Below, in pieces: positions 3,369 through 28,511 of a stretch of DNA of 48,639 nucleotides. The translations under genes and the position numbers were made by a program. Under the pieces are notes generated by a model that saw only the letters and a program-made list of their open reading frames with translations, ran no database searches and was not told the DNA's origin. Source of the stretch: a virus. Taxonomy: Duplodnaviria > Heunggongvirae > Uroviricota > Caudoviricetes. Numbering within the stretch: position 1 is the first letter of the stretch; each line of letters starts with the position of its first letter. The stretch is taken from the IMG/VR virus record IMGVR_UViG_2778261184_000002, positions 1-48,639 of that record; one strand, 5' to 3'.

Positions 3369-4244
3369 GTGAGCAAAAACATATTTCCCAATCGTATTAT
3401 TAAAAAGTTATTCCGATTCAAATTACTGAAGACTGTTGGCGTTGCTCTTCTTCTGTCAAGTCATTCTGCGCTCGCGGATTATGGAAGAAACGCGGTTATA
3501 TCATGGGCTAATGAATACCAGAGCCAACATGGCGCAATGAGCCTTTACTATGAATACAACAGATACGGAGTTGATCCACAAGTGTATCTTATTCGTGAAA
3601 TTAATCGTGCGTGGCAATCTGGGGTGGTAGCCGCTCAACGTGGGCGAGTGATTAATGACGATGAAGCCTATGAGTATGGGTTGCGTCGGATACAGAGGCT
3701 TCGAATCAGCCAGGCGCTGGGGAATGATGTTACGCTATCCCTGACTAATCTGTGGGTTAAAGCGTTGCATGATGGCTGGAACTATGGAAATGCCAACAAT
3801 GGCAGTGTTACACAATCTTCAACGGCCTCTGCTGCAAGTAATAGCGCGCCAACGTTTTCCTGTAAGGTTGACGTAACATACCAAGGGAAGCGTAGTCATT
3901 ATATGGATGAAGCCGGGGCGTGGGATCAGGTAATTACAGACTATGGGACTTATTTCTCGTGGGATTTACCACGTGGCAACCGGGGTAATAGTACCGGGCA
4001 AGATGCATTTAGCGGAATGGATGAGACTCAACCAGTTCTGAACAATAAGCTGATACGCAAAGAGACAGAAAAGGATGGTAGCACGGTCGATGAATTTCGC
4101 ACTGAGGTTAGTTATGGCAGCGACCAGCCAGTTCATAAGTTTGTGTATGCTCGTCGCATAAAACCGAATGGTATTCGTGAATATTATGTTACTGATTTAA
4201 CGGACAAACGTGCGTTTATGTTCCTGAATTGTCAGCAGGACTAG
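3369..4244 (+). CDS. Secreted/periplasmic hypothetical protein
   Basis: 291-aa ORF, GTG start, N-terminal signal-peptide-like segment (LLKTVGVALLLSSHSALA-DYG). Confidence 0.5.
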   Translation: MSKNIFPNRIIKKLFRFKLLKTVGVALLLSSHSALADYGRNAVISWANEYQSQHGAMSLYYEYNRYGVDPQVYLIREINRAWQSGVVAAQRGRVINDDEAYEYGLRRIQRLRISQALGNDVTLSLTNLWVKALHDGWNYGNANNGSVTQSSTASAASNSAPTFSCKVDVTYQGKRSHYMDEAGAWDQVITDYGTYFSWDLPRGNRGNSTGQDAFSGMDETQPVLNNKLIRKETEKDGSTVDEFRTEVSYGSDQPVHKFVYARRIKPNGIREYYVTDLTDKRAFMFLNCQQD

Positions 4245-5516: not shown

Positions 5517-5533
5517 TGTTAGAAAATTAATTC
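5517..5533 (+). promoter_or_regulatory. Operator-like 17-bp motif copy (TGTTAGAAAATTAATTC)
   Basis: One of at least 14 copies of consensus TGTTAGAAAATTAATTT. Confidence 0.45.
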
Positions 5534-6105
5534 ATCATTTCTTGCACCGTCTGATAGAGCGTCATCTCTTCGGCATTGTGCCGTATAAAATCTGCTTTCC
5601 CGCCTATTTTTCCATCAGCATGAACAGGAACCAACCAGGGATATTGTTCGCGGATCTCTGCTGGCGCTGCGTGCTGGTGGTGCCATTTACACAAAGGGAG
5701 AACGTATTTATGGGCATCTTTAGCCGTTCTGCCAAATATGTGGTGGAGAGATACGACAGGGCTATGCTTCCCGTGAAGATGGCAGGCAATACAGGGGATT
5801 TTGCCTATAGCGTCCTGTATCCGGCGCTCTTCTGCTGTGAGTGATCTCCCTTTTAATCCGCGTGACGTGCGCGTTTTTTTGGGGAGGGCAGACGCCGCTC
5901 TCTCTCTTCTGCGCTGTTCACTTTGCCTCGCTTTTTCAAGTTTCTTTTGACGATATTCAGGCGATGCGGCTTTTTCCCTTGCGCGTTGCTGCTGGCGTTG
6001 AGCCTGCTGAAGACGTTTTGCCCTTTGCTCTTCCCGCCATTCCGGATCAGCCAGTTTTTGCATGGCTTTTTGTCTCTGTTTCTCCCAATAACTCTGTCTC
6101 TGCAT
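5527..6105 (-). CDS. ref: Ref-like HNH endonuclease (P1 recombination enhancement function family)
   Basis: 192 aa; highly charged R/Q/E/K-rich N-terminal ~80 aa followed by HNH-type motif CIACHLHG...SLHHIFGRT...LPLCKWHHQ; operator-like site upstream, as for P1 ref. Confidence 0.7.
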   Translation of the reverse strand: MQRQSYWEKQRQKAMQKLADPEWREEQRAKRLQQAQRQQQRAREKAASPEYRQKKLEKARQSEQRRRERAASALPKKTRTSRGLKGRSLTAEERRIQDAIGKIPCIACHLHGKHSPVVSLHHIFGRTAKDAHKYVLPLCKWHHQHAAPAEIREQYPWLVPVHADGKIGGKADFIRHNAEEMTLYQTVQEMMN

Positions 6106-7001: not shown

Positions 7002-7315
7002 GCTGGCGGGGATGGGGAAGGGCAGAAATCATGATACTCCGCCAGTGCGCCGGAACTATGACGGTAGAGAGTATTGGGAAGCTGATCGGTCGTACCGGTG
7101 ATGCCGTCAGGACTAAAGCGCGGGAGCTGGGGATCAGCATGATTCTGAAAGGAGACTTTCATCCGTCAGCCAAATACCGGCAGAGCGATATAGAACTGGC
7201 ACGGCAGCTTCATCAGTGTGGTGTTCCCCGCCGTGAGATCGCGGAAAAACTCGAAATGCCCCTGGGCATGATTAATCAGTACGTTTATTTCGAAAGGAGA
7301 GTGCATGAAGTCTGA
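6998..7315 (+). CDS. Small HTH DNA-binding protein
   Basis: 105 aa; two HTH-like segments (TVESIGKLIGRTGDAVRTKAREL; RREIAEKLEMPLGMINQYV); overlaps upstream stop. Confidence 0.45.
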   Translation: MSWRGWGRAEIMILRQCAGTMTVESIGKLIGRTGDAVRTKARELGISMILKGDFHPSAKYRQSDIELARQLHQCGVPRREIAEKLEMPLGMINQYVYFERRVHEV

Positions 7316-7814
7316 AGGTTTAACGCCCGCACAACTGGCAGAGCGTAACGCTGAGTATGTAACGGAAATTTCCCGACTTGAGAAAGAGCGCGCGGCGCTG
7401 GCGGCAGAGAATGCGACACTGAAGGCGATATGTGAGGACCGCCGCACGTTCATTATGAATGGCGTGCAGCTTGGTTTTATCAAGGTGCCAACAGTGGAAA
7501 CAGATCCAGCTCTTGAAACAATTCGTATCGCCATATCACCACAAAAAACCACTCCTGCGACCGATGCTTTCTTGGATGAAATGAAGACTGAAGCACGCAA
7601 GGAAGGGGCTTACTTTGTGGCGAACAGAATGTTGGCTGCCTGGAAAGCTGGTTTTATTGATGATACTGCGAAGAACGCCGAGGATATTGCCCAGATGATT
7701 CTTACCTCTACTGATTTTATGGCTAATGCGCCGGAAGGAGATTTTGACCGCTCATTCTCTGATGGCGTTCTCGAAGATATCGCTGAACAGCTTCGTAAAG
7801 GAGTCATCCAGTGA
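7305..7814 (+). CDS. Ea22-like mosaic protein (paralog 1)
   Basis: Shares coiled-coil block and C-terminal PATDAFL...AEQLRKG cassette with 7811-8449, 11025-11642, 11923-12600. Confidence 0.5.
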   Translation: MKSEGLTPAQLAERNAEYVTEISRLEKERAALAAENATLKAICEDRRTFIMNGVQLGFIKVPTVETDPALETIRIAISPQKTTPATDAFLDEMKTEARKEGAYFVANRMLAAWKAGFIDDTAKNAEDIAQMILTSTDFMANAPEGDFDRSFSDGVLEDIAEQLRKGVIQ

Positions 7815-8449
7815 GCGAGCTTTACTATCCGTTACGTGAACGTTATTCACCGAAACCAGCGCCTAAATGCCCTGTTTGTGGCGAGGAAATGTCAATGCAG
7901 CGCATATCTGGATCACATGTTGTTTATGCCTGTTCCGGCATGGAGGATGACGGATGCTTCAAAACTGGACGAACTTATGCTGACGAGCATTACAAAAATT
8001 CGCGCATATCAGTAGTTGATGGTAGCGATCCTGATGTGATTGAACTGCTGGACGAGAACGTGGAGATGGCCCTAACGCTTGAGAAGCTGCGTGTTGAGCT
8101 GGAGGCTGCTAAACAGCGTATTGCCAAATACGAAAGCAATTACGGGGCGATTGTGGCGGAATGCCAAAGCAAAAAAGCAGCACTTGAGGCAATTCTTTGC
8201 CATTGCCCAATTAATCATCCAGATATAGACATCGCATGTATAGCGAACATCGCTCATAACGAATTAGGCGAGGCGAAAAGCACTACATCTAAGGCATCCC
8301 TTGTAGAAATACAGGCACAAGGGGTGGAGGCATTCGCTTTGACGATGCGCGATACAGGAGATGACCCATTTTTTGATTCCGTTGCTTCTGCTTGCGCGGA
8401 TGCAGCTGATAGGTTCGCCGCCCAGCTTCGCAAAGGAGGCAACCGGTGA
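7811..8449 (+). CDS. Ea22-like mosaic protein (paralog 2) with N-terminal Cys cluster
   Basis: CPVCGEE...C-x-GMEDDGC zinc-ribbon-like N-terminus; LRVELEAAKQRIA coiled coil; C-terminal AAQLRKGGNR. Confidence 0.5.
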   Translation: MSELYYPLRERYSPKPAPKCPVCGEEMSMQRISGSHVVYACSGMEDDGCFKTGRTYADEHYKNSRISVVDGSDPDVIELLDENVEMALTLEKLRVELEAAKQRIAKYESNYGAIVAECQSKKAALEAILCHCPINHPDIDIACIANIAHNELGEAKSTTSKASLVEIQAQGVEAFALTMRDTGDDPFFDSVASACADAADRFAAQLRKGGNR

Positions 8450-8721
8450 ATATCGACACGACAATAACGATCGATACGCTCCTAAATACCGGTCTGGCAC
8501 TTCTCGGTTGGCTTTACATCATGTCCCGCACATGGCGATGGCTGGGTTCCATTTTCCTAAAACAGTGGAAAAAACGGCGCAAACAGGAACTACGCCAGAA
8601 GGCATTAGAAGCGTTCTATGACGCATTTGAGCTTAGCCGCATTGAACCAGGTACAACAGCCAGGATAGCGACAAAAGGCGACCTGATGATAGTGATGTTC
8701 AGACAGGAGAAAACAAAATGA
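8446..8721 (+). CDS. Small membrane protein
   Basis: 91 aa; one hydrophobic helix (LLNTGLALLGWLYIM) then basic stretch. Confidence 0.4.
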   Translation: MNIDTTITIDTLLNTGLALLGWLYIMSRTWRWLGSIFLKQWKKRRKQELRQKALEAFYDAFELSRIEPGTTARIATKGDLMIVMFRQEKTK

Positions 8722-8945
8722 CAGAACAGACGATGACAAATCGCGAACTTGTTGATGCCGCGATTGAACTTGCTGGCGATTTTTATTCCATGATGGGTTA
8801 CGAGCATCGACCTGGTTTTAAGTATTGGGAGTCACCGCATCCGCAAGAACAACAGGTGTTTGAAATGGCCTGCCGCGCTTTTGAAGTTATTCGCGGTTCT
8901 GATGTGATGGACGCGGTTGCTGATTTGGAGGATGTTGCAGAATGA
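8718..8945 (+). CDS. Hypothetical protein
   Basis: 75-aa ORF overlapping both neighbours by 4 nt. Confidence 0.4.
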
Positions 8946-9625
8946 TCACCGTTAACGACCAGGCGTTATATAGCCGTATTGATGGTTCAGGATACAGAAA
9001 CATATGGGTTGTTGGTGATTTGCACGGTTGCTACACCCTGCTTATGAATGAACTCCATCGTGTGGATTTTGACCCGGCGCAGGATTTACTGATATCAGTC
9101 GGCGACCTTATCGATCGCGGCACTGAAAATGTCGAATGCCTGGAGTTATTGCAAATGCCCTGGTTCCGGGCTGTCATGGGTAACCATGAGCGGTTGATGA
9201 TCGATGCGTTAAGCCCAGCTGGAAACGTGAATAACTGGCTAATGAATGGCGGTCAGTGGTTCTTTATGCTGGATAGTGATAAGGAAGTTTTAGCCAGGGC
9301 GCTGGTGGAGCTGGTAAGGCAATTGCCTCATATCATTGAGCTGAACACCGGGCAGGAGACTATTGTCATTGCTCATGCTGACTATCCGGATAGAGAGTAT
9401 CAGTTCGGTAAGGCTGTGCCGCTTTTCAATGTCATCTGGTCGCGCGACCGTGTTAGTGATTCGATAGATGGCATCGGTGAAGAAATTACAGGTGCAGATC
9501 GATTTATCTTCGGACACACCCCGGCTAAAAGCCCAAAAGCATTCTGGAACCAGCATTATATCGATACTGGTGCTGTATTTTGCGGAAACCTGACGCTAAT
9601 GCAGGTGAAGGGAGGGCAACCGTAA
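8942..9625 (+). CDS. Ser/Thr protein phosphatase (lambda NinI/ORF221-like metallophosphoesterase)
   Basis: GDLHG, GDLIDRG, GNHE, and GHTP metallophosphatase motifs in order; 227 aa. Confidence 0.85.
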
Positions 9626-9657
9626 GCCGGGTTACATCGTTTACGCGCTCAAAACCG

Positions 9658-9687
9658 TGTTAGATTGTTGATTTTAATTTTCTAACA
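9658..9687 (-). promoter_or_regulatory. 30-bp composite operator-like site (TGTTAGAAAATTAAAA-N7-TCTAACA on minus strand)
   Basis: Same architecture as 6153-6182; about 40 bp upstream of ORF 9730. Confidence 0.5.
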
Positions 9688-9729
9688 TATTATTTTACCG
9701 CTCGGAACAAAACAGAGTCGGTATGCATT

Positions 9730-10725
9730 ATGAGTGCAATAATCACCCCATATGTCGTAAATGAAACTGGTGTGGCTGTCTTTCCTGTAGATAAGCCCAC
9801 CAGCAATTACATCGGCGCAGGCCGCCGTTTTCTTATCTCCCCATTGCCGCGCGAACAGGCTGAAAACACCCCTGATGGCGTCGTGGACCTGAATTATTCC
9901 CTGGTTGCCAACCAGTCACTGACACCCTTTTTTCAAAGTGAGCGCGTATTTAATGCGTTAGGTGGCGAGGATTCTATCGTTCACTGGGTTAGCACCAACA
10001 TTCACGATTGCCAGGCGCATGATAAGCGCGATTGTAGCCACCAGCTAACCACTCACTTCTATAACGGTTCTGCCGTTCGCCTGTGCTGGAAGCATGATGC
10101 GGAATACATGATGAAGGGGTACAGCAAGCTGGACGACCAGTTATCCCTGAATCGCGCCAACTGGGTTATGAACTGGGCTGCGAGCGAGTTAAAACTACCG
10201 CCAGAACGCGATCTTAGCATGGTTGAACTCACTTTTTGGGCCATTCGCCGGAATCTGAAAGATGAGCTGCCAGATGAAGCCGGGCGCATTGCATTTTGTC
10301 AGCCAAAAACTGAAATCCCTACCGGTACGCTGAAAGAATCAGATATCACCTGGGAGCACAGTACCCGCGAGCTGGTGGACATAACCGCAGAGCAGATCGT
10401 CAACCTGTCTGTAGATGAGGATTCCGGCCTGCTTTATATGCGCCGACCAAAAGCGGTCCTCGGTAAAAGCCCAGCTTATCTCCGGTTTGTGGTTTCTCGT
10501 CCGTGCATCGGATGCGGTGGCAAAGTTAACCACCCGTTCATGTACCGCGCCCGCTCGTTAAACGAACACGACCGCTGGGCTGTTCCTCTTTGCGATGACT
10601 GCGCCAGAAGCGCAGAAAACGATGTCCGGGCATGGGAAAAAGCACATGGCATACGCCTTTACGTAGCCGCTAACCAGCTTTTTGACTTCGCCATCGAGCG
10701 CGGAGTGATCACGTTCAATAACTGA
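9730..10725 (+). CDS. Hypothetical protein with C-terminal Cys/His-rich (HNH- or Zn-ribbon-like) domain
   Basis: C-terminus CIGCGG...H...PLCDDC; N-terminal 250 aa without recognisable motif. Confidence 0.45.
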   Translation: MSAIITPYVVNETGVAVFPVDKPTSNYIGAGRRFLISPLPREQAENTPDGVVDLNYSLVANQSLTPFFQSERVFNALGGEDSIVHWVSTNIHDCQAHDKRDCSHQLTTHFYNGSAVRLCWKHDAEYMMKGYSKLDDQLSLNRANWVMNWAASELKLPPERDLSMVELTFWAIRRNLKDELPDEAGRIAFCQPKTEIPTGTLKESDITWEHSTRELVDITAEQIVNLSVDEDSGLLYMRRPKAVLGKSPAYLRFVVSRPCIGCGGKVNHPFMYRARSLNEHDRWAVPLCDDCARSAENDVRAWEKAHGIRLYVAANQLFDFAIERGVITFNN

Positions 10726-10738
10726 TGGGAACAATGCA

Positions 10739-11038
10739 ATGAGTCAAGGTAATGGTGACGGAGCTGCAAAGTGCAGAATCTCCACTTGTTTGATTAATGA
10801 CAAAACAATAGAACCGTGCGCGGCGTTGGCACAATCTCTGGAGCAGGATGCTGAATACACGACGCGGAAAGGTCTGCTGAAATACAAAATCTATAACCAT
10901 GAATTAATTCATTCACAAGACCTGATCATGCTGCGATCAGGCGAGTTTTCTAAATCGCCGATTCGAATTTCATTTTGCCCGTTCTGTGGTGAAAGTCTGA
11001 AAACGCGGGAAGCGGAGGCAACCAGTGAGCAAAATTAA
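10739..11038 (+). CDS. Small Cys-containing protein (possible zinc ribbon)
   Basis: 99 aa; CRISTC near N-terminus and CPFCG near C-terminus. Confidence 0.4.
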   Translation: MSQGNGDGAAKCRISTCLINDKTIEPCAALAQSLEQDAEYTTRKGLLKYKIYNHELIHSQDLIMLRSGEFSKSPIRISFCPFCGESLKTREAEATSEQN

Positions 11039-11642
11039 CTATCAAGAACTGCGCGAGGCGGCGGAACAGGCAACGCAAGATGAATGGGTAGCATATATTT
11101 TGCCGGGTCATAACGGCATTTATCCTGCGCGCACGTCTGAAGGTAGGCATTGCGGATACTTTATTGACTGGCCTGGCATTGATGGACAAAGGAATGCTGG
11201 TGCTAATGCTCGTTATATCGCTGCTATCCCACCAAAAGTTGCGTTGTCACTACTGGATGAAATTAAACGTCAGGAGGACTCAAATATTGATGCTATGTGC
11301 CGTGTTGCAGAGCTTGAAACTAATATCGCGGCGCTGGTGGCAGAGAACGCCGGACTGAAACACGCAATGGCCGTAACTCTTGAGCATGTGTCGGTAACGG
11401 ATGCAGGGCAGGCCGGAGTTGCTGCGATGATTATTAATGATGCCCTGCACCACAGCGAAACGCCAGCTACCGACGCTTTCCTGGCGGAAGTGCGGGCGCA
11501 GGGGGTGGATATGGCTCGTAACGCGATGATTGATTTTGTTGATGGTGAAGTTGGGCCAAACAAGAACGTTCCGGGGCTGATTAGAGGCGCAGAGATATGC
11601 GTAAGTATTGCTGAACAGCTTCGCAAAGGAGGCAACCAGTGA
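11025..11642 (+). CDS. Ea22-like mosaic protein (paralog 3)
   Basis: NYQELREAAEQA, NARYIAAIPPKVALSLLDE, PATDAFLAEV, AEQLRKGGNQ blocks. Confidence 0.5.
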   Translation: MSKINYQELREAAEQATQDEWVAYILPGHNGIYPARTSEGRHCGYFIDWPGIDGQRNAGANARYIAAIPPKVALSLLDEIKRQEDSNIDAMCRVAELETNIAALVAENAGLKHAMAVTLEHVSVTDAGQAGVAAMIINDALHHSETPATDAFLAEVRAQGVDMARNAMIDFVDGEVGPNKNVPGLIRGAEICVSIAEQLRKGGNQ

Positions 11643-11926
11643 GCGAAATTAATTACCAGGCACTGCGTGAGGCGGCGGAACGTGCAATTCCAGCAATGGA
11701 ACGCCTGTTAATGTTGCCAGCTGATGATGATTTGTTAAGTGAACAAGAACTTAAAGATTACGGTGTGGATATTGATGCGCTCAACGCCTTCAAATTTCTG
11801 GCCGGACCAGAAACCGTGCTGGCGCTGCTGGATGAAAACGAAAGACTGTGTCGCGAGCTGATAGCTCGTAATGGTGAGATTGAAGGGCTTCGGAAGTGGG
11901 CAGAAGAACGGGAGATGCAACCATGA
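11639..11926 (+). CDS. Ea22-like mosaic protein (short paralog 4)
   Basis: INYQALREAAERA and LALLDENERL blocks only. Confidence 0.45.
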   Translation: MSEINYQALREAAERAIPAMERLLMLPADDDLLSEQELKDYGVDIDALNAFKFLAGPETVLALLDENERLCRELIARNGEIEGLRKWAEEREMQP

Positions 11927-12600
11927 TGACTTTTACCAGCGAACAATTAGCTACCTTACGTAAGATAGCGCAACAGGCAACACAGGGCGAATGGCGTGCA
12001 TTCATCTCGCCGGACACTGGTACATATGCGGTGCATACACCTGGTGATAAACGATGTGAAGACGTTATCAAATGGACCGGCTTTGATGGACAGAACAACG
12101 CAGAGAACAACGCTCGTTATATCGCAGCTTTCAACCCTGAAGTAGTGCAGGCACTACTGGATGAACGGGAAAGAAACCAGCAATACATCAAATCCCGCGA
12201 CCAGGAGAACGAGGATATTGCACTAACAGTTGGGAAGCTGAGAGTTGAGCTGGAAGCCGCAGAGAAGCGCATAGCAGAACTGGAAACAAAAGCGAACCAG
12301 CAAACCAGAATAAGCGATAAGGGGCTGACAAAGCTGATTGCCGATGCTGACAAAATGCTGGGTATGCGTTCGCCGGTTATAGACAGCGAGTGGTGGACGC
12401 TTTTACGGCAGTTCCTGATTGAACTTCAGGATCGCCGCAGAAACAGCATTTCTGAATCTGGAATCCGTGCTGAAACCCTGAATGATTTAATCCGACATAT
12501 TGACAGAAACCTGGATATTGACGCGATGAAATCGCCGTTTGAACTGTCATCTGAAATTGTGGATTACGTTAATAGGCAACTGCACAAGGAGAATTCGTAA
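11923..12600 (+). CDS. Ea22-like mosaic protein (paralog 5)
   Basis: NARYIAAFNPEVVQALLDE and LRVELEAAEKRIAELE blocks; start placed at ATG 11923 overlapping upstream stop. Confidence 0.5.
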   Translation: MMTFTSEQLATLRKIAQQATQGEWRAFISPDTGTYAVHTPGDKRCEDVIKWTGFDGQNNAENNARYIAAFNPEVVQALLDERERNQQYIKSRDQENEDIALTVGKLRVELEAAEKRIAELETKANQQTRISDKGLTKLIADADKMLGMRSPVIDSEWWTLLRQFLIELQDRRRNSISESGIRAETLNDLIRHIDRNLDIDAMKSPFELSSEIVDYVNRQLHKENS

Positions 12601-12782
12601 TGCAGGTGGCATTTGTTGGCCTGTTACCGCATCCGATCCGCCTTTGGGCGGATATGTCACTCATAAAAACGCATTTTTTTACTACTGATGGCGGCATTCC
12701 GGCACCAAAGCGCCGCCATACCGGTATTGCAGCGGCACGACGAGCAGCAAAGAAACGCAAACGCAGGAGAACAAAACGATGA
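12600..12782 (+). CDS. Small protein with poly-basic C-terminus
   Basis: 60 aa ending KKRKRRRTKR; overlaps neighbours by ATGA/TAATG junctions. Confidence 0.3.
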   Translation: MQVAFVGLLPHPIRLWADMSLIKTHFFTTDGGIPAPKRRHTGIAAARRAAKKRKRRRTKR

Positions 12783-12955
12783 AAAACCGTAAAGCAAAAT
12801 TACTTCTTTTATCGCGTTCGACGGGGTACGAGAAGCTACCAATCAGCAATCACAAACGGGCGGTGATCGGCATGTTTGGTAGGGTGGTATTCGCATTTAA
12901 CTATAAACCCACCGCGTCGAGGAACAGACGAGAGAAGGGGTACGCAGTGCGATGA
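12779..12955 (+). CDS. Candidate small ORF, 58 aa, N-terminus MKNRKAK
   Basis: First 21 nt nearly identical to the start of ORF 12952; not in track (under 60 aa). Confidence 0.25.
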   Translation: MKNRKAKLLLLSRSTGYEKLPISNHKRAVIGMFGRVVFAFNYKPTASRNRREKGYAVR

Positions 12956-13143
12956 AAAACCGTAAGGCAAAGATGCTGATAGCAAAGCCCGGGCAGCGTA
13001 TCCGTATCTCAAATCGGCTTGTTATTTACTATAGATATCTGGGTTTTAGGGGGTGTTCCTCTATTCGTTTTTACGGTGTCTGGCGGAGCAGAAGCGCGGC
13101 GCAAAACCGCTGGAAAAACCACTTGCGCACTAAAGGAGAGTGA
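12952..13143 (+). CDS. Candidate small ORF, 63 aa, N-terminus MKNRKAK
   Basis: Shares duplicated start sequence with 12779. Confidence 0.3.
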   Translation: MKNRKAKMLIAKPGQRIRISNRLVIYYRYLGFRGCSSIRFYGVWRSRSAAQNRWKNHLRTKGE

Positions 13144-13144
13144 G

Positions 13145-13660
13145 ATGGCGTTAACACACCGCGAACTCTGTCAGATTGCGTACAAGTTCCTTAAGCGCAA
13201 CGGGTTCAAGGTTTGCTTTCATGACCGCTTTATAGCTGTAACCAGTACCGGAGAACAGCCAGATGCTATGGGATTCAGAAATTCAGCATCATGCTTGATA
13301 GAGGCGAAGTGTTCTCGTGCTGACTTGTTGGCAGATAGAAAAAAGCGTTTCCGTAAAAATCCGTCTCTTGGAATGGGCGACTGGCGATTCTTTATTAGTG
13401 AGCCGGGAATTATTTCAGTTGAGGATTTACCTCCCGGCTGGGGATTACTTCACGTTGTTAACGGAAGAGTACGGAAAGTACATGGATGGCCCAAGGGGAA
13501 TTGCTGTTGGGGTAATCCTGACGATAAGCCATTTACTGGGAATAAGCAGGTTGAATGCGATTACATGTTATCTGCATTAAGGCGCATGGAGCTAAGAGGA
13601 CACCTTAATGAAATATATGACGGTGTAATTGTTAATAAGAAAGAAGGAAACGCGGCATGA
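13145..13660 (+). CDS. PD-(D/E)xK-type nuclease candidate
   Basis: D...E-A-K arrangement (PDAMGF ... CLIEAKC); start placed at ATG 13145 with AAGGAGAG RBS instead of track start 13019. Confidence 0.4.
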   Translation: MALTHRELCQIAYKFLKRNGFKVCFHDRFIAVTSTGEQPDAMGFRNSASCLIEAKCSRADLLADRKKRFRKNPSLGMGDWRFFISEPGIISVEDLPPGWGLLHVVNGRVRKVHGWPKGNCCWGNPDDKPFTGNKQVECDYMLSALRRMELRGHLNEIYDGVIVNKKEGNAA

Positions 13661-27435: not shown

Positions 27436-27513
27436 TAATCCCCCAGGCAGGAAATGACCGAGGGGATGATAATGAGAATGTTATTTCTGTATAGACTGGC
27501 AAAAAGTTGGTTA

Positions 27514-27543
27514 TATTAGAAAATTAATTCCATTCATCTAACA
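27514..27543 (+). promoter_or_regulatory. 30-bp composite operator-like site (TATTAGAAAATTAATT-N7-TCTAACA)
   Basis: Same architecture and spacing as 6153-6182, 9658-9687 and 43595-43624. Confidence 0.5.
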
Positions 27544-27936
27544 CTACCAGCGATATAAGCGAACGACGTGTTTTACCTTAGCGATCCACTTACCACGTGA
27601 GTTATTAATTACGGCCTGCGCCACCTTTAAGCTGACTTCAAAATCAGCCTTACGACCATCAGAATCCACCAGCGTTGCACCGTCTATTTCCGGCAGGCTT
27701 AAATAATCCTGTTCTACCTCTAATGGCATTGACGGCTCTCTGAATGGTGTCAATTGCCGAGCTTCCCAGATAAAGCGAACTCTCAATCCCCTATAAGCCA
27801 TTACCATGTAGCCTGTTATCGTGCTCTTATGGCCTGCCTCAGTACGCGCAGCATTACACGATACAATCTTACAGGTGACGATATTCCACTCCACATTGGA
27901 GACTTCGTGAATGCTTAATTTTGTTGTCTCGTACAT
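27544..27936 (-). CDS. Hypothetical protein
   Basis: 130-aa ORF; start overlaps upstream stop. Confidence 0.45.
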   Translation of the reverse strand: MYETTKLSIHEVSNVEWNIVTCKIVSCNAARTEAGHKSTITGYMVMAYRGLRVRFIWEARQLTPFREPSMPLEVEQDYLSLPEIDGATLVDSDGRKADFEVSLKVAQAVINNSRGKWIAKVKHVVRLYRW

Positions 27937-28511
27937 CAGAATGCCTCCCAGTCAGTTGCGATAATATCCACGCCAGTTGCGAACCAGTCTGTCTGCGCCT
28001 GTAAATCCCCATTCATCATTACCAGGCGAGGCATAACCATCACATCGCACCCTTCCACAATATCGAATGCCTCTTCCGGCAAGAATTCGAAGAGCTTTTC
28101 TTTGCTGCCAATGCTGCCACGGAACATCGATAAATAGCTCCCTTTAGGCCATGATGCCCGGCGGGCATCCAGCCCCTTCATCATCCAGAACATGGCGGCA
28201 GAAAAATTGATGTTCTTTTTGGCGATGAAAACATTATTGGCTTCTGTTTGCTTCAGAAACTTAATTAGCCTTGCCATCGACTCGGATAACGCTACGTATG
28301 GCTCATGATTGGCTGCGGACACGCTCACACCATGTAATCCAACACTGACTACCGTCATATCGCCGCTTTGAGCGGTTTCAATGTTGACACCTTTGCGAAC
28401 TAACGAGGCATAAAGTTCCTCTCGCTTTTGTGTCCAGCGTTCCCGCTGACCGATGAAGTCACTCAATATGAGATCTGCTTCTGCATACGCGTTATCGTTC
28501 GCCGTTAACAT
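27936..28511 (-). CDS. Protein with C-terminal DUF2829-like domain
   Basis: C-terminal half FSAAMFWMMKGLDARRASWPKGSYL...DIIATDWEAF. Confidence 0.45.
   Translation of the reverse strand: MLTANDNAYAEADLILSDFIGQRERWTQKREELYASLVRKGVNIETAQSGDMTVVSVGLHGVSVSAANHEPYVALSESMARLIKFLKQTEANNVFIAKKNINFSAAMFWMMKGLDARRASWPKGSYLSMFRGSIGSKEKLFEFLPEEAFDIVEGCDVMVMPRLVMMNGDLQAQTDWFATGVDIIATDWEAF

Follow-up and report, generated by a model that had tools for sequence, protein, structure and literature searches.

Two processes are usually invoked to account for the mosaicism of phage genomes: illegitimate recombination with subsequent selection, and homologous exchange at short boundary sequences, clear examples of which have been hard to find. 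Which of these processes has shaped a gene cluster in which the gene boundaries themselves look like repeats? This question is raised by the DNA of 48,639 nucleotides (nt) from a virus of the Caudoviricetes (IMG/VR record IMGVR_UViG_2778261184_000002, positions 1 to 48,639), the whole of which is referred to as the window. The window matches Escherichia phage D6 at 91% identity and plasmids of E. coli of approximately 90 kilobases at up to 99% identity, and its source is, judging from these matches, a P1/D6-like phage-plasmid of E. coli. An earlier note, made from the letters of the window alone, described five open reading frames (ORFs) between positions 7305 and 12600 as mosaic Ea22-like paralogues that recombine a small set of blocks. 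All five ORFs are present on the plus strand, and are termed genes A to E (Table 1). The results described below point to linker-mediated modular exchange in the Ea22 slots of a putatively coupled operon, with conserved blocks acting likewise at the sub-gene scale. We give this reading a probability of roughly three in four.

The five proteins were compared pairwise by BLASTP. The heads of C and E are 43% identical over 102 amino acids (aa) (E value 2e-20), the C-terminal parts of B and C are 30% identical (5e-9), the coils of B and E are 64% identical over 28 aa (4e-7), and the heads of C and D are 33% identical (8e-6). The block similarities hold in alignment with these E values of 8e-6 to 2e-20, and A and C are 26% identical over 154 aa at an E value of 1e-5. 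The DNA repeats underlying the blocks are recovered independently as families D1-D7, and every block named in the earlier note is found at definite coordinates. The alignment gives a layout of head, coil, hinge and variable C-terminal cassette, but in D the C-terminal part is missing, and in A the head. The five proteins combine, each in its own way, a head, a coil of one of two types, a PATDAFL hinge, alternative C-terminal cassettes and a common tail. The head consists of NYQxLREAAE and LLDE, between which some heads have a beta-rich insert that ends in NARYIAA, and the tail has the consensus A-x-Q-L-R-K-G-G-N-Q. Among database homologues, the front part of C (head, coil and hinge) is followed by at least five different C-terminal cassettes, all of which end in this tail, and the cassette of gene A is among them (homologues P0084 and P0107). 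The block-wise similarity and these homologues support the reading of the genes as mosaic paralogues.

The boundaries of these genes carry a short sequence, which is referred to as the linker. Its 18-nt junction AAAGGAGNCANCCRGTGA occurs four times in the window with up to two mismatches, as compared with 0.04 expected from shuffled sequences, and the 17-nt core GGAGGCAACCAGTGAGC occurs four times with up to three mismatches, as compared with 0.09 expected. The identity among the ends of A, B and C remains at background (7-47%) up to approximately 30 nt before the stop codon and then rises to 80-93%. The three junction copies at 7780-7814, 8415-8449 and 11608-11642 are 80-89% identical to one another. 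Thus, three genes end with closely similar DNA, as had been claimed, but the copies number four. The fourth copy, at 11011-11030, forms the 3' end of an unrelated gene (10739-11038), in which it is read in another frame (..EAEATSEQN-stop), and the GTG start of C lies inside this gene. Likewise, the claimed overlap of a stop with the next start is found as GTGA at 7811, 8446 and 11639, but not at 11025, where the upstream gene stops 14 nt later with TAA (11036-11038). Downstream of the copy at 8432-8449 lies a DUF4752 gene (8446-8721) instead of an Ea22 gene. Gene E ends with a different junction, AAGGAGAATTCGTAATG, in which a Shine-Dalgarno (SD) sequence for the next ORF is embedded.

GGAGG is located at -12 to -8 of GTG in all four copies, GTG overlaps TGA in three of them, and AAGGAG precedes TAATG at 12600. 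An overlapping stop and start, an SD sequence inside the upstream ORF and a 7-nt spacer represent the standard geometry of translational coupling, so that the junction is predicted to act in this way. The four copies of the linker show no significant structure (z-scores of -0.4 to +1.2) and contain no inverted repeat. A 5-base-pair hairpin that would hide the SD sequence (CAGCUUC with GGAGGC) is possible in 20 of the 37 upstream types described below, without covariation and without significant stability, and its retention reflects only sequence conservation, because its 3' arm is invariant. A fusion of neighbouring proteins by frameshifting or readthrough across the junction was also considered and was dropped; the downstream frame is -1 and the junction contains no slippery sequence.

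The linker is widespread. At least 120 IMG/VR contigs contain the 18-nt junction, and the linker followed by a head is found in 430 phage records, which cover lambdoid phages (HK97, mEp phages, HK633 and Shiga toxin (Stx) phages), P22-like phages (EaD/EaE) and P1-like phages. The sequences downstream of the motif are many variants of the Ea22 head, but also genes for DUF4752, upf87.4-like, methyltransferase and 3'-phosphoadenosine 5'-phosphosulfate (PAPS) reductase proteins and homologues of window 8718-8945, and those upstream of it are at least 15 different C-terminal cassettes. When the 112 unique junctions among the matches listed are clustered at 80% identity over 260 nt on each side, the 37 upstream and 40 downstream clusters obtained occur in 90 combinations, as compared with 100 ± 2.5 expected for random assortment and at most 40 for complete linkage. 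Thus, the flanking modules assort close to randomly, and the linker keeps a constant length over all 37 x 40 module types. With one representative per combination, column conservation falls to background beyond approximately -31 and +50. The D6-like arrays contain one to five direct copies of the linker each. A head similar to that of lambda Ea22 (84% DNA identity) is also present in the record of Xanthomonas phage vB_XooS_NR08 (OQ055246.1, 1345-1395), where it is taxonomically out of place and may represent contamination or a chimeric assembly.

The points at which the flanking modules switch were located in module-dereplicated pairs of junctions that are at least 95% identical on one side of GTG and unrelated on the other side. 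When the upstream sides are the same, divergence begins at +5 to +9 in 56 of 113 pairs and at +30 to +44, the end of the NYQALRE block, in 38 of 113. When the downstream sides are the same, divergence begins at -16 to -25 in 62 of 92 pairs. The switch interval in most pairs is thus approximately -25 to +9 of GTG (approximately 34 nt), and otherwise lies at the end of the NYQALRE head block.

Individual events are found in close relatives of the window. Plasmid NZ_CP150992, which is 98.5% identical to the window, lacks gene C by an exact indel of 614 base pairs. This indel runs between the 60-nt repeats 11014-11073 and 11628-11687, with the crossover within GGAGGCAACCAGTGAGC. In the D6-like plasmid NZ_CP173593, the tail of A leads through the same linker to a D-type head, which takes the place of B. 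In two relatives, D and E are fused into one gene, which is joined in the LLDE block and lacks window 11845-12144; this is the layout of lambda Ea22, because lambda Ea22 consists of a D-type head, an E-type coil and its own C-terminal domain. In phage D6, orf91 is the start of A fused to the middle of C at the AALxAENA block. When homology boundaries are counted for segments of at least 85% identity from 165 loci, the main peaks are 33 starts at 11600-11660, 33 ends at 11820-11860, 70 starts at 12140-12160 and 79 ends at 12240-12300, and smaller peaks are located at the other junctions and within approximately 20 nt of the PATDAFL and AALxAENA blocks. These boundaries suggest that the intragenic blocks LLDE, LRVELEAA, AALxAENA and PATDAFL are exchange points, besides the gene boundaries. 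The proposal that gene boundaries are repeats at which cassettes are swapped is supported by the assortment of the modules, the switch points inside the linker and the exact 614-base-pair indel, from which we infer that the exchange is homologous.

The core of the linker corresponds to an SD sequence, a spacer and an overlapping stop and GTG start, and not merely to a C-terminal peptide, because the fourth copy ends an unrelated gene in another frame. The upstream gene also reads the core in another frame in 14 of the 112 junctions listed (..KETTSERN-stop), and the core is found behind frames that are open for just 11-21 codons. A second sample consists of 96 Ea22 heads collected, among the matches listed, by a pattern of the head only, so that the linker itself is not selected for. 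The linker is located ahead of 59 of these heads (61%) with up to three mismatches, and the remaining junctions are mostly of a few other recurrent types, with few singletons. Several loci of this sample keep GGAGGCAACCAGTGAGC behind an upstream sequence that does not encode QLRK. In the linker junctions of this sample, synonymous variants number 14 at the Ala codon -10 and 13 at the Ala codon -9, a sign that the helix A-x-Q-L-R is constrained at the protein level. Variation in the last four codons (G-G-N-Q) is nearly always non-synonymous (GGC to GAC; AAC to AGC or AAA), and three changes of CAG to CAA turn the GTG start into ATG. This pattern indicates that the linker core is conserved at the nucleotide rather than the peptide level.

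Other tails of the family place the SD sequence in a similar manner. The tail of E serves the ORF that starts at 12600, and the tail of 933W Ea22, AAAAGAGGTGAGTAATG (also given as AGAGGTGAGTAATG), serves an unannotated ORF of 51 aa that is homologous to window 12600-12782 (E value 8e-13). The tail of lambda Ea22, AAAGGAGAGTGAGATC, is the sequence of window 13131-13147, except that ATG is lost in lambda. All three contain the SD sequence 6-8 nt before a start codon or the relic of a start codon. The Ea22 proteins studied so far all end in K/R-G-E, a motif reported as of unknown significance (PMC7093339). Since these other tails do the job of the linker with other sequences, K/R-G-E is most simply the SD sequence read as codons, that is, the predicted ribosome-binding site of the next gene.

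The following mechanism would account for these results. For the next gene, which has a GTG start overlapping TGA, the last codons of the tail double as SD sequence (GGAGG) and 7-nt spacer. The linker of approximately 35-60 nt (tail, SD sequence, GTGA and head start) would have two jobs, because the codons of the tail are also the SD sequence, spacer and start of the next gene. It would make translation of the downstream gene depend on that of the upstream one, and it would provide homology for recombination by which whole genes are exchanged, deleted or inserted, because it is identical whatever the flanking modules are. The conserved intragenic blocks would do likewise at the scale of domains. 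RecA is the likely agent of such homologous exchange in P1-like elements, perhaps aided by the adjacent Ref protein, and recombinases of the Red/RecT/Erf type are candidates in lambdoid phages, their genes being located in the same operon in lambda and 933W.

The same mosaics might be produced by illegitimate recombination followed by selection (the Hendrix model), in which joints form anywhere and those at boundaries survive. The linker would then be conserved as a ribosome-binding site and start and as an ancestral helix end, and not as a substrate for recombination. Overlapping stop/start junctions occur throughout the operon, several other junction types precede Ea22 heads, a few of them as singletons, and the synonymous variation at the Ala codons of the tail points to constraint on the protein, all of which are consistent with this model, as is the absence of boundary sequences from most phage mosaic joints in the literature (PMC3029335). 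The LLDE joint, which shares just 3-8 nt with the window alleles, favours it as well. However, the spacer GCAACCA needs no set sequence for translation, and yet most of it is unchanged across the head-ascertained sample and it persists in both frames. Nor does the model predict an invariant linker length, switch points confined to approximately 34 nt, an exact indel of gene C between 60-nt repeats, or junctions that are mostly of a few recurrent types and not unique. Illegitimate recombination with selection is therefore unlikely to be the main source of these junctions. Several points nevertheless weigh against exchange at the linker. Recombination there is deduced entirely from comparison of sequences, and translational coupling from geometry. 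Breakpoints at conserved blocks are also expected where a motif under functional constraint is common to unrelated sequences. The linker copies of the window are perfectly identical over 17 nt at most, and because the shared identity is so short here and at the LLDE joint, some joints may be illegitimate or may derive from other donors. The IMG/VR junctions listed were ascertained by the motif itself, for which the head-ascertained sample corrects partly. In addition, in a relative that is 98.9% identical, the plasmid region equivalent to the window has no annotated recombinase of the Red/RecT/Erf type.

It is improbable that the similarity of the DNA is a by-product of selection on a peptide with a function at the C-terminus (AEQLRKGGNQ or K/R-G-E), for example a tag for degradation or interaction. 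The universal K/R-G-E ending of the Ea22 proteins studied (PMC7093339) and the conservation of A-x-Q-L-R as amino acids despite synonymous codon changes are as expected for a peptide with a function of its own, but a peptide does not account for a core that is read in a second frame behind unrelated genes (window 11011 and the 14 listed junctions) or behind frames of 11-21 codons, nor for changes in the last four codons that are nearly all non-synonymous. The tails AAAGGAGAGTGAGATC of lambda, AGAGGTGAGTAATG of 933W and AAGGAGAATTCGTAATG of window E agree in the position of the SD sequence, and the same K-G-E-stop sequence terminates a non-Ea22 ORF at 13131-13143. We regard it as equally improbable that the linker belongs to a dedicated cassette system of the integron kind, as the site on which a specific recombinase or nuclease acts. 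The direct copies of the linker within an array, the functionally unrelated cassettes behind the same linker (DUF4752, methyltransferase, PAPS reductase and upf87.4-like) and the gene for the Ref nuclease beside the array in P1-like elements resemble such a system, but the linker has neither an inverted repeat nor a significant fold, no recombinase gene is consistently adjacent to it across the lambdoid, P22-like and P1-like contexts, and Ref is RecA-dependent and is not known to be sequence-specific. A bolder version of exchange at the linker, which we hold to be doubtful, is that the linker is a self-propagating, plug-and-play adaptor, which ensures expression of the gene behind it through its SD sequence, spacer and start and at the same time provides the homology to capture or exchange that gene. 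The Ea22 slots would then be accessory arrays that are integron-like but independent of a recombinase, and Ref could boost exchange in P1-like elements. If this were true, it would settle the K/R-G-E motif as an embedded ribosome-binding site.

The assignment of the five genes to the Ea22 family holds for four of them. The scores for Pfam family PF13935 (Ead_Ea22) are 45.4 bits for B, 86.6 for C, 70.8 for D and 109.6 for E, all of which are above the gathering cutoff of 27 bits. Gene A gives no match in the Pfam search, but matches phrog_614, phrog_368 and phrog_492 through its C-terminal two thirds, and also phrog_14548. It has no Ea22 head and shares the coil, hinge, C-terminal region and tail with C. 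Because it lacks a PF13935 match, A is a relative of Ea22 through its C-terminal parts only. Gene D is probably a remnant, truncated to the head, and the ORF at its position in one relative is a partial pseudogene according to the NCBI annotation. The coordinates of the genes, linker copies and blocks are summarized in Table 1.

Table 1. Positions of the genes, linker copies and shared blocks in the window
Feature	Position	Strand	Description
Gene A, 169 aa	7305-7814	+	no Ea22 head; AALAAENATLK coil block, PATDAFL hinge, GDFDRSFSDGVLEDI C-terminal cassette, AEQLRKGVIQ tail
AALAAENA coil block of A	7391-7423	+	85% identical to 11327-11359 in C (repeat D7); joint of chimeric phage D6 orf91
Linker copy 1	7780-7827	+	tail codons, SD (GGAG), TGA stop overlapping GTG start of B (repeats D1, D3)
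Gene B, 212 aa, Ea22-like	7811-8449	+	CxxC...C...C N-terminal segment, LLDE, lambda-type LRVELEAA coil, C-related C-terminal part, AAQLRKGGNR tail
B coil block LRVELEAA	8054-8135	+	73% identical to 12205-12286 (repeat D2)
Linker copy 2	8415-8451	+	B tail, SD GGAGG, GTGA; serves DUF4752 gene 8446-8721 (repeat D3)
upf87.4-like gene (phrog_4030)	10739-11038	+	3' end holds linker copy 3 in a different frame
Linker copy 3 and head block	10992-11073	+	repeat D1; 60-nt repeat D5, 87% identical to 11628-11687; left boundary of 614-base-pair gene-C indel
Gene C, 205 aa, full Ea22-like	11025-11642	+	NYQELREAAE head, beta-rich insert, NARYIAA, LLDE, AALVAENAGLK coil, PATDAFL, C-terminal cassette, AEQLRKGGNQ tail
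Linker copy 4 and head block	11606-11687	+	repeats D1, D3, D5; right boundary of gene-C indel; 33 homology starts
Gene D, 95 aa	11639-11926	+	lambda-type Ea22 head MSEINYQALREAAE...LLDEN; ends after LLDE block
LLDE block of D	11816-11845	+	intragenic breakpoint; pairs with 12145-12174 in E (repeat D4)
Gene E, 225 aa, Ea22-like	11923-12600	+	933W-type head with NARYIAA, lambda-type LLDERERNQQYIK...LRVELEAA coil, own C-terminal domain
E coil module, LLDE to LRVELEAA	12145-12257	+	widely shared; breakpoint at each side
Second linker type AAAGGAGAGTGAGATG	13131-13147	+	..TKGE-stop, then ATG; serves gene starting at 13145; ends a non-Ea22 ORF
NYQxLREAAE	C 11037-11066; D 11651-11680	+	
NARYIAA	C 11205-11225; E 12109-12129	+	
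LLDE	in B, C, D, E	+	
LRVELEAA	B 8087-8110; E 12238-12261	+	
PATDAFL	A 7554-7574; C 11463-11483	+	in C, 5' boundary of exchangeable C-terminal cassette
[AE]QLRKG tail	in A, B, C	+	

The two coil types are distributed among the four longer paralogues in such a way that A and C contain AALxAENAxLK, and B and E contain LRVELEAA. Since each coil-matched pair consists of one gene from each cluster, this pairing suggests that specific A-C and B-E hetero-oligomers may form. By analogy with Ea22 of lambda and of Stx phages, the proteins would act early, form oligomers and bias the choice between lysis and lysogeny. The structure of C modelled by AlphaFold2 from an alignment of 21 sequences has a mean predicted local distance difference test score (pLDDT) of 53.9 and a predicted template modelling score of 0.31, and only the coil helix, a long helix at residues 70-121 with a pLDDT of approximately 70-75, is moderately confident. 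PDB sequence searches with A, C and E give nothing significant; the best match is a weak, non-significant one of 40 aa between residues 184-223 of E and YoeB/RelB-type chains (E value 0.17). A search of eight proteins for defence systems with PADLOC gives zero matches. In B, the usual Ea22 head is replaced by CPVCGEE...YACSG..DDGC at residues 20-49, for which a weak Pfam match to YdjO is obtained (E value 0.008, below the cutoff). The N-terminus of B is possibly a zinc ribbon.

The genes 7305-12600 are part of a long accessory operon on the plus strand, which judging from its geometry is translationally coupled. The run of genes on this strand extends from 6351 to approximately 14150 with near-universal stop/start overlaps (GTGA, ATGA and TAATG). 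The operon has two variable slots, one behind a gene for a DNA-binding protein and the other behind the upf87.4-like gene, and both hold lambdoid Ead/Ea22 members. The only sizeable intergenic gap of the operon, 9626-9729, is AT-rich and is located between ppp and the DUF968/pdcB gene; it may contain an internal promoter. The annotation of the relatives is P1-like, with Ref, Ppp, PdcB/DUF968, Hot, HumD, a Cre-like recombinase, PacA/B, RepL, portal and head genes. The Ea22-like genes are located between ref and hot/humD, and not between exo and xis as in the pL early operon of lambdoid phages, which is a difference of context that leaves the protein family unaffected. The variable operon starts approximately 250 nt downstream of the gene for the Ref-family recombination-enhancement nuclease (5527-6105, minus strand), which is found at this position in the window and in all D6-like relatives examined. 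Elsewhere on the plasmid of the closest relative, NZ_CP196102, a HigB/HigA toxin-antitoxin pair and a Thoeris anti-defence protein of the Tad2 family are encoded (1130-1795 and 27438-28013). A published study of D6-like plasmid populations makes no mention of the region 7305-12600.

The region 3' of E contains three small basic ORFs, 12600-12782 followed by the tandem paralogues 12779-12955 and 12952-13143, both of which begin with MKNRKAK (repeat D13, 95% identical). This stretch of three ORFs (12600-13147) matches an unannotated stretch downstream of 933W ea22. The 51-aa ORF of 933W is located at 3948-4103 of NC_000924 on the minus strand, overlaps the ea22 stop (TAATG), and is not annotated in the RefSeq record.

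Ea22 proteins consist of a variable N-terminal segment, a coiled coil and a variable or unrelated C-terminal domain (PMC10834534, PMC7093339, PMC8614690). The ea22 genes of Stx phages are mosaic, and one genome may contain as many as three variants (PMC10834534); the ea22 gene of 933W is split by an insertion (PMC10834534, PMC7093339, PMC8614690). The genes of the window agree with these. Gene E contains the LLDERERNQQYIK..LRVELEAA coil of both lambda and 933W Ea22, with 54% identity to lambda Ea22 over the coil region (E value 5e-22) and 47% identity to 933W Ea22 over 133 aa of head and coil (1e-24), and D has the MSEINxQALREAAE head of lambda Ea22 and its GTG start overlapping the upstream stop. 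They differ in that five copies are present in a P1/D6-like phage-plasmid, between ref and hot/humD and not between exo and xis, that the tail is K-G-G-N-Q instead of K/R-G-E, and that A is headless and D is truncated. In the PDB sequence searches with A, C and E, no C-terminal domain resembles the solved C-terminal domain of lambda Ea22. A tetrameric protein that favours lysogeny is known for lambda and Stx Ea22 only (PMC7093339, PMC10834534).

The overlapping stops and starts (GTGA and ATGA) with GGAGG 7 nt upstream that recur across the operon are the same as in other cases of translational coupling, but here one particular coupling sequence is common to dozens of unrelated gene pairs. Rad52-like recombinases of phages act on short, diverged homologies to give mosaics with frequent intragenic exchange of approximately 100 base pairs (De Paepe et al. 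2014, PMC3945230). The modules described here are of similar size (100-600 nt), whereas the P1-like element shows only Ref in the part examined, so that the enzymology proposed here is conjectural. Early-operon cassettes have flowed between lambdoid phages and P1-like phage-plasmids, as documented by this locus.

The closest precedent is that of the short conserved boundary sequences proposed as foci of recombination in lambdoid phages (Susskind and Botstein 1978; Clark et al. 2001, for HK620; both as cited in PMC3029335). The linker is the same in that a short conserved sequence lies at module borders whatever flanks it, the modules assort freely and the exchange points lie inside the sequence. 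It is different in that it also encodes a protein tail, an SD sequence and a start codon, and lies between single small genes, with blocks within genes acting similarly, rather than between large functional modules. The linker may be one of the seven boundary sequences of Clark et al. 2001. The underlying idea is thus the established boundary-sequence model, and the locus is an unusually clear example of it and not a new kind of system. Three elements appear to be additional: the array of five copies in a P1-like phage-plasmid, the quantification of the linker and the reading of K/R-G-E as a ribosome-binding site, which offers a simple explanation for a terminus left open in the literature. 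A single sequence may be able to act as protein tail, ribosome-binding site, start codon and recombination homology, and the boundary-sequence model gains a countable example, in which hundreds of temperate phages of enterobacteria have one linker of approximately 35 nt between dozens of unrelated gene pairs.

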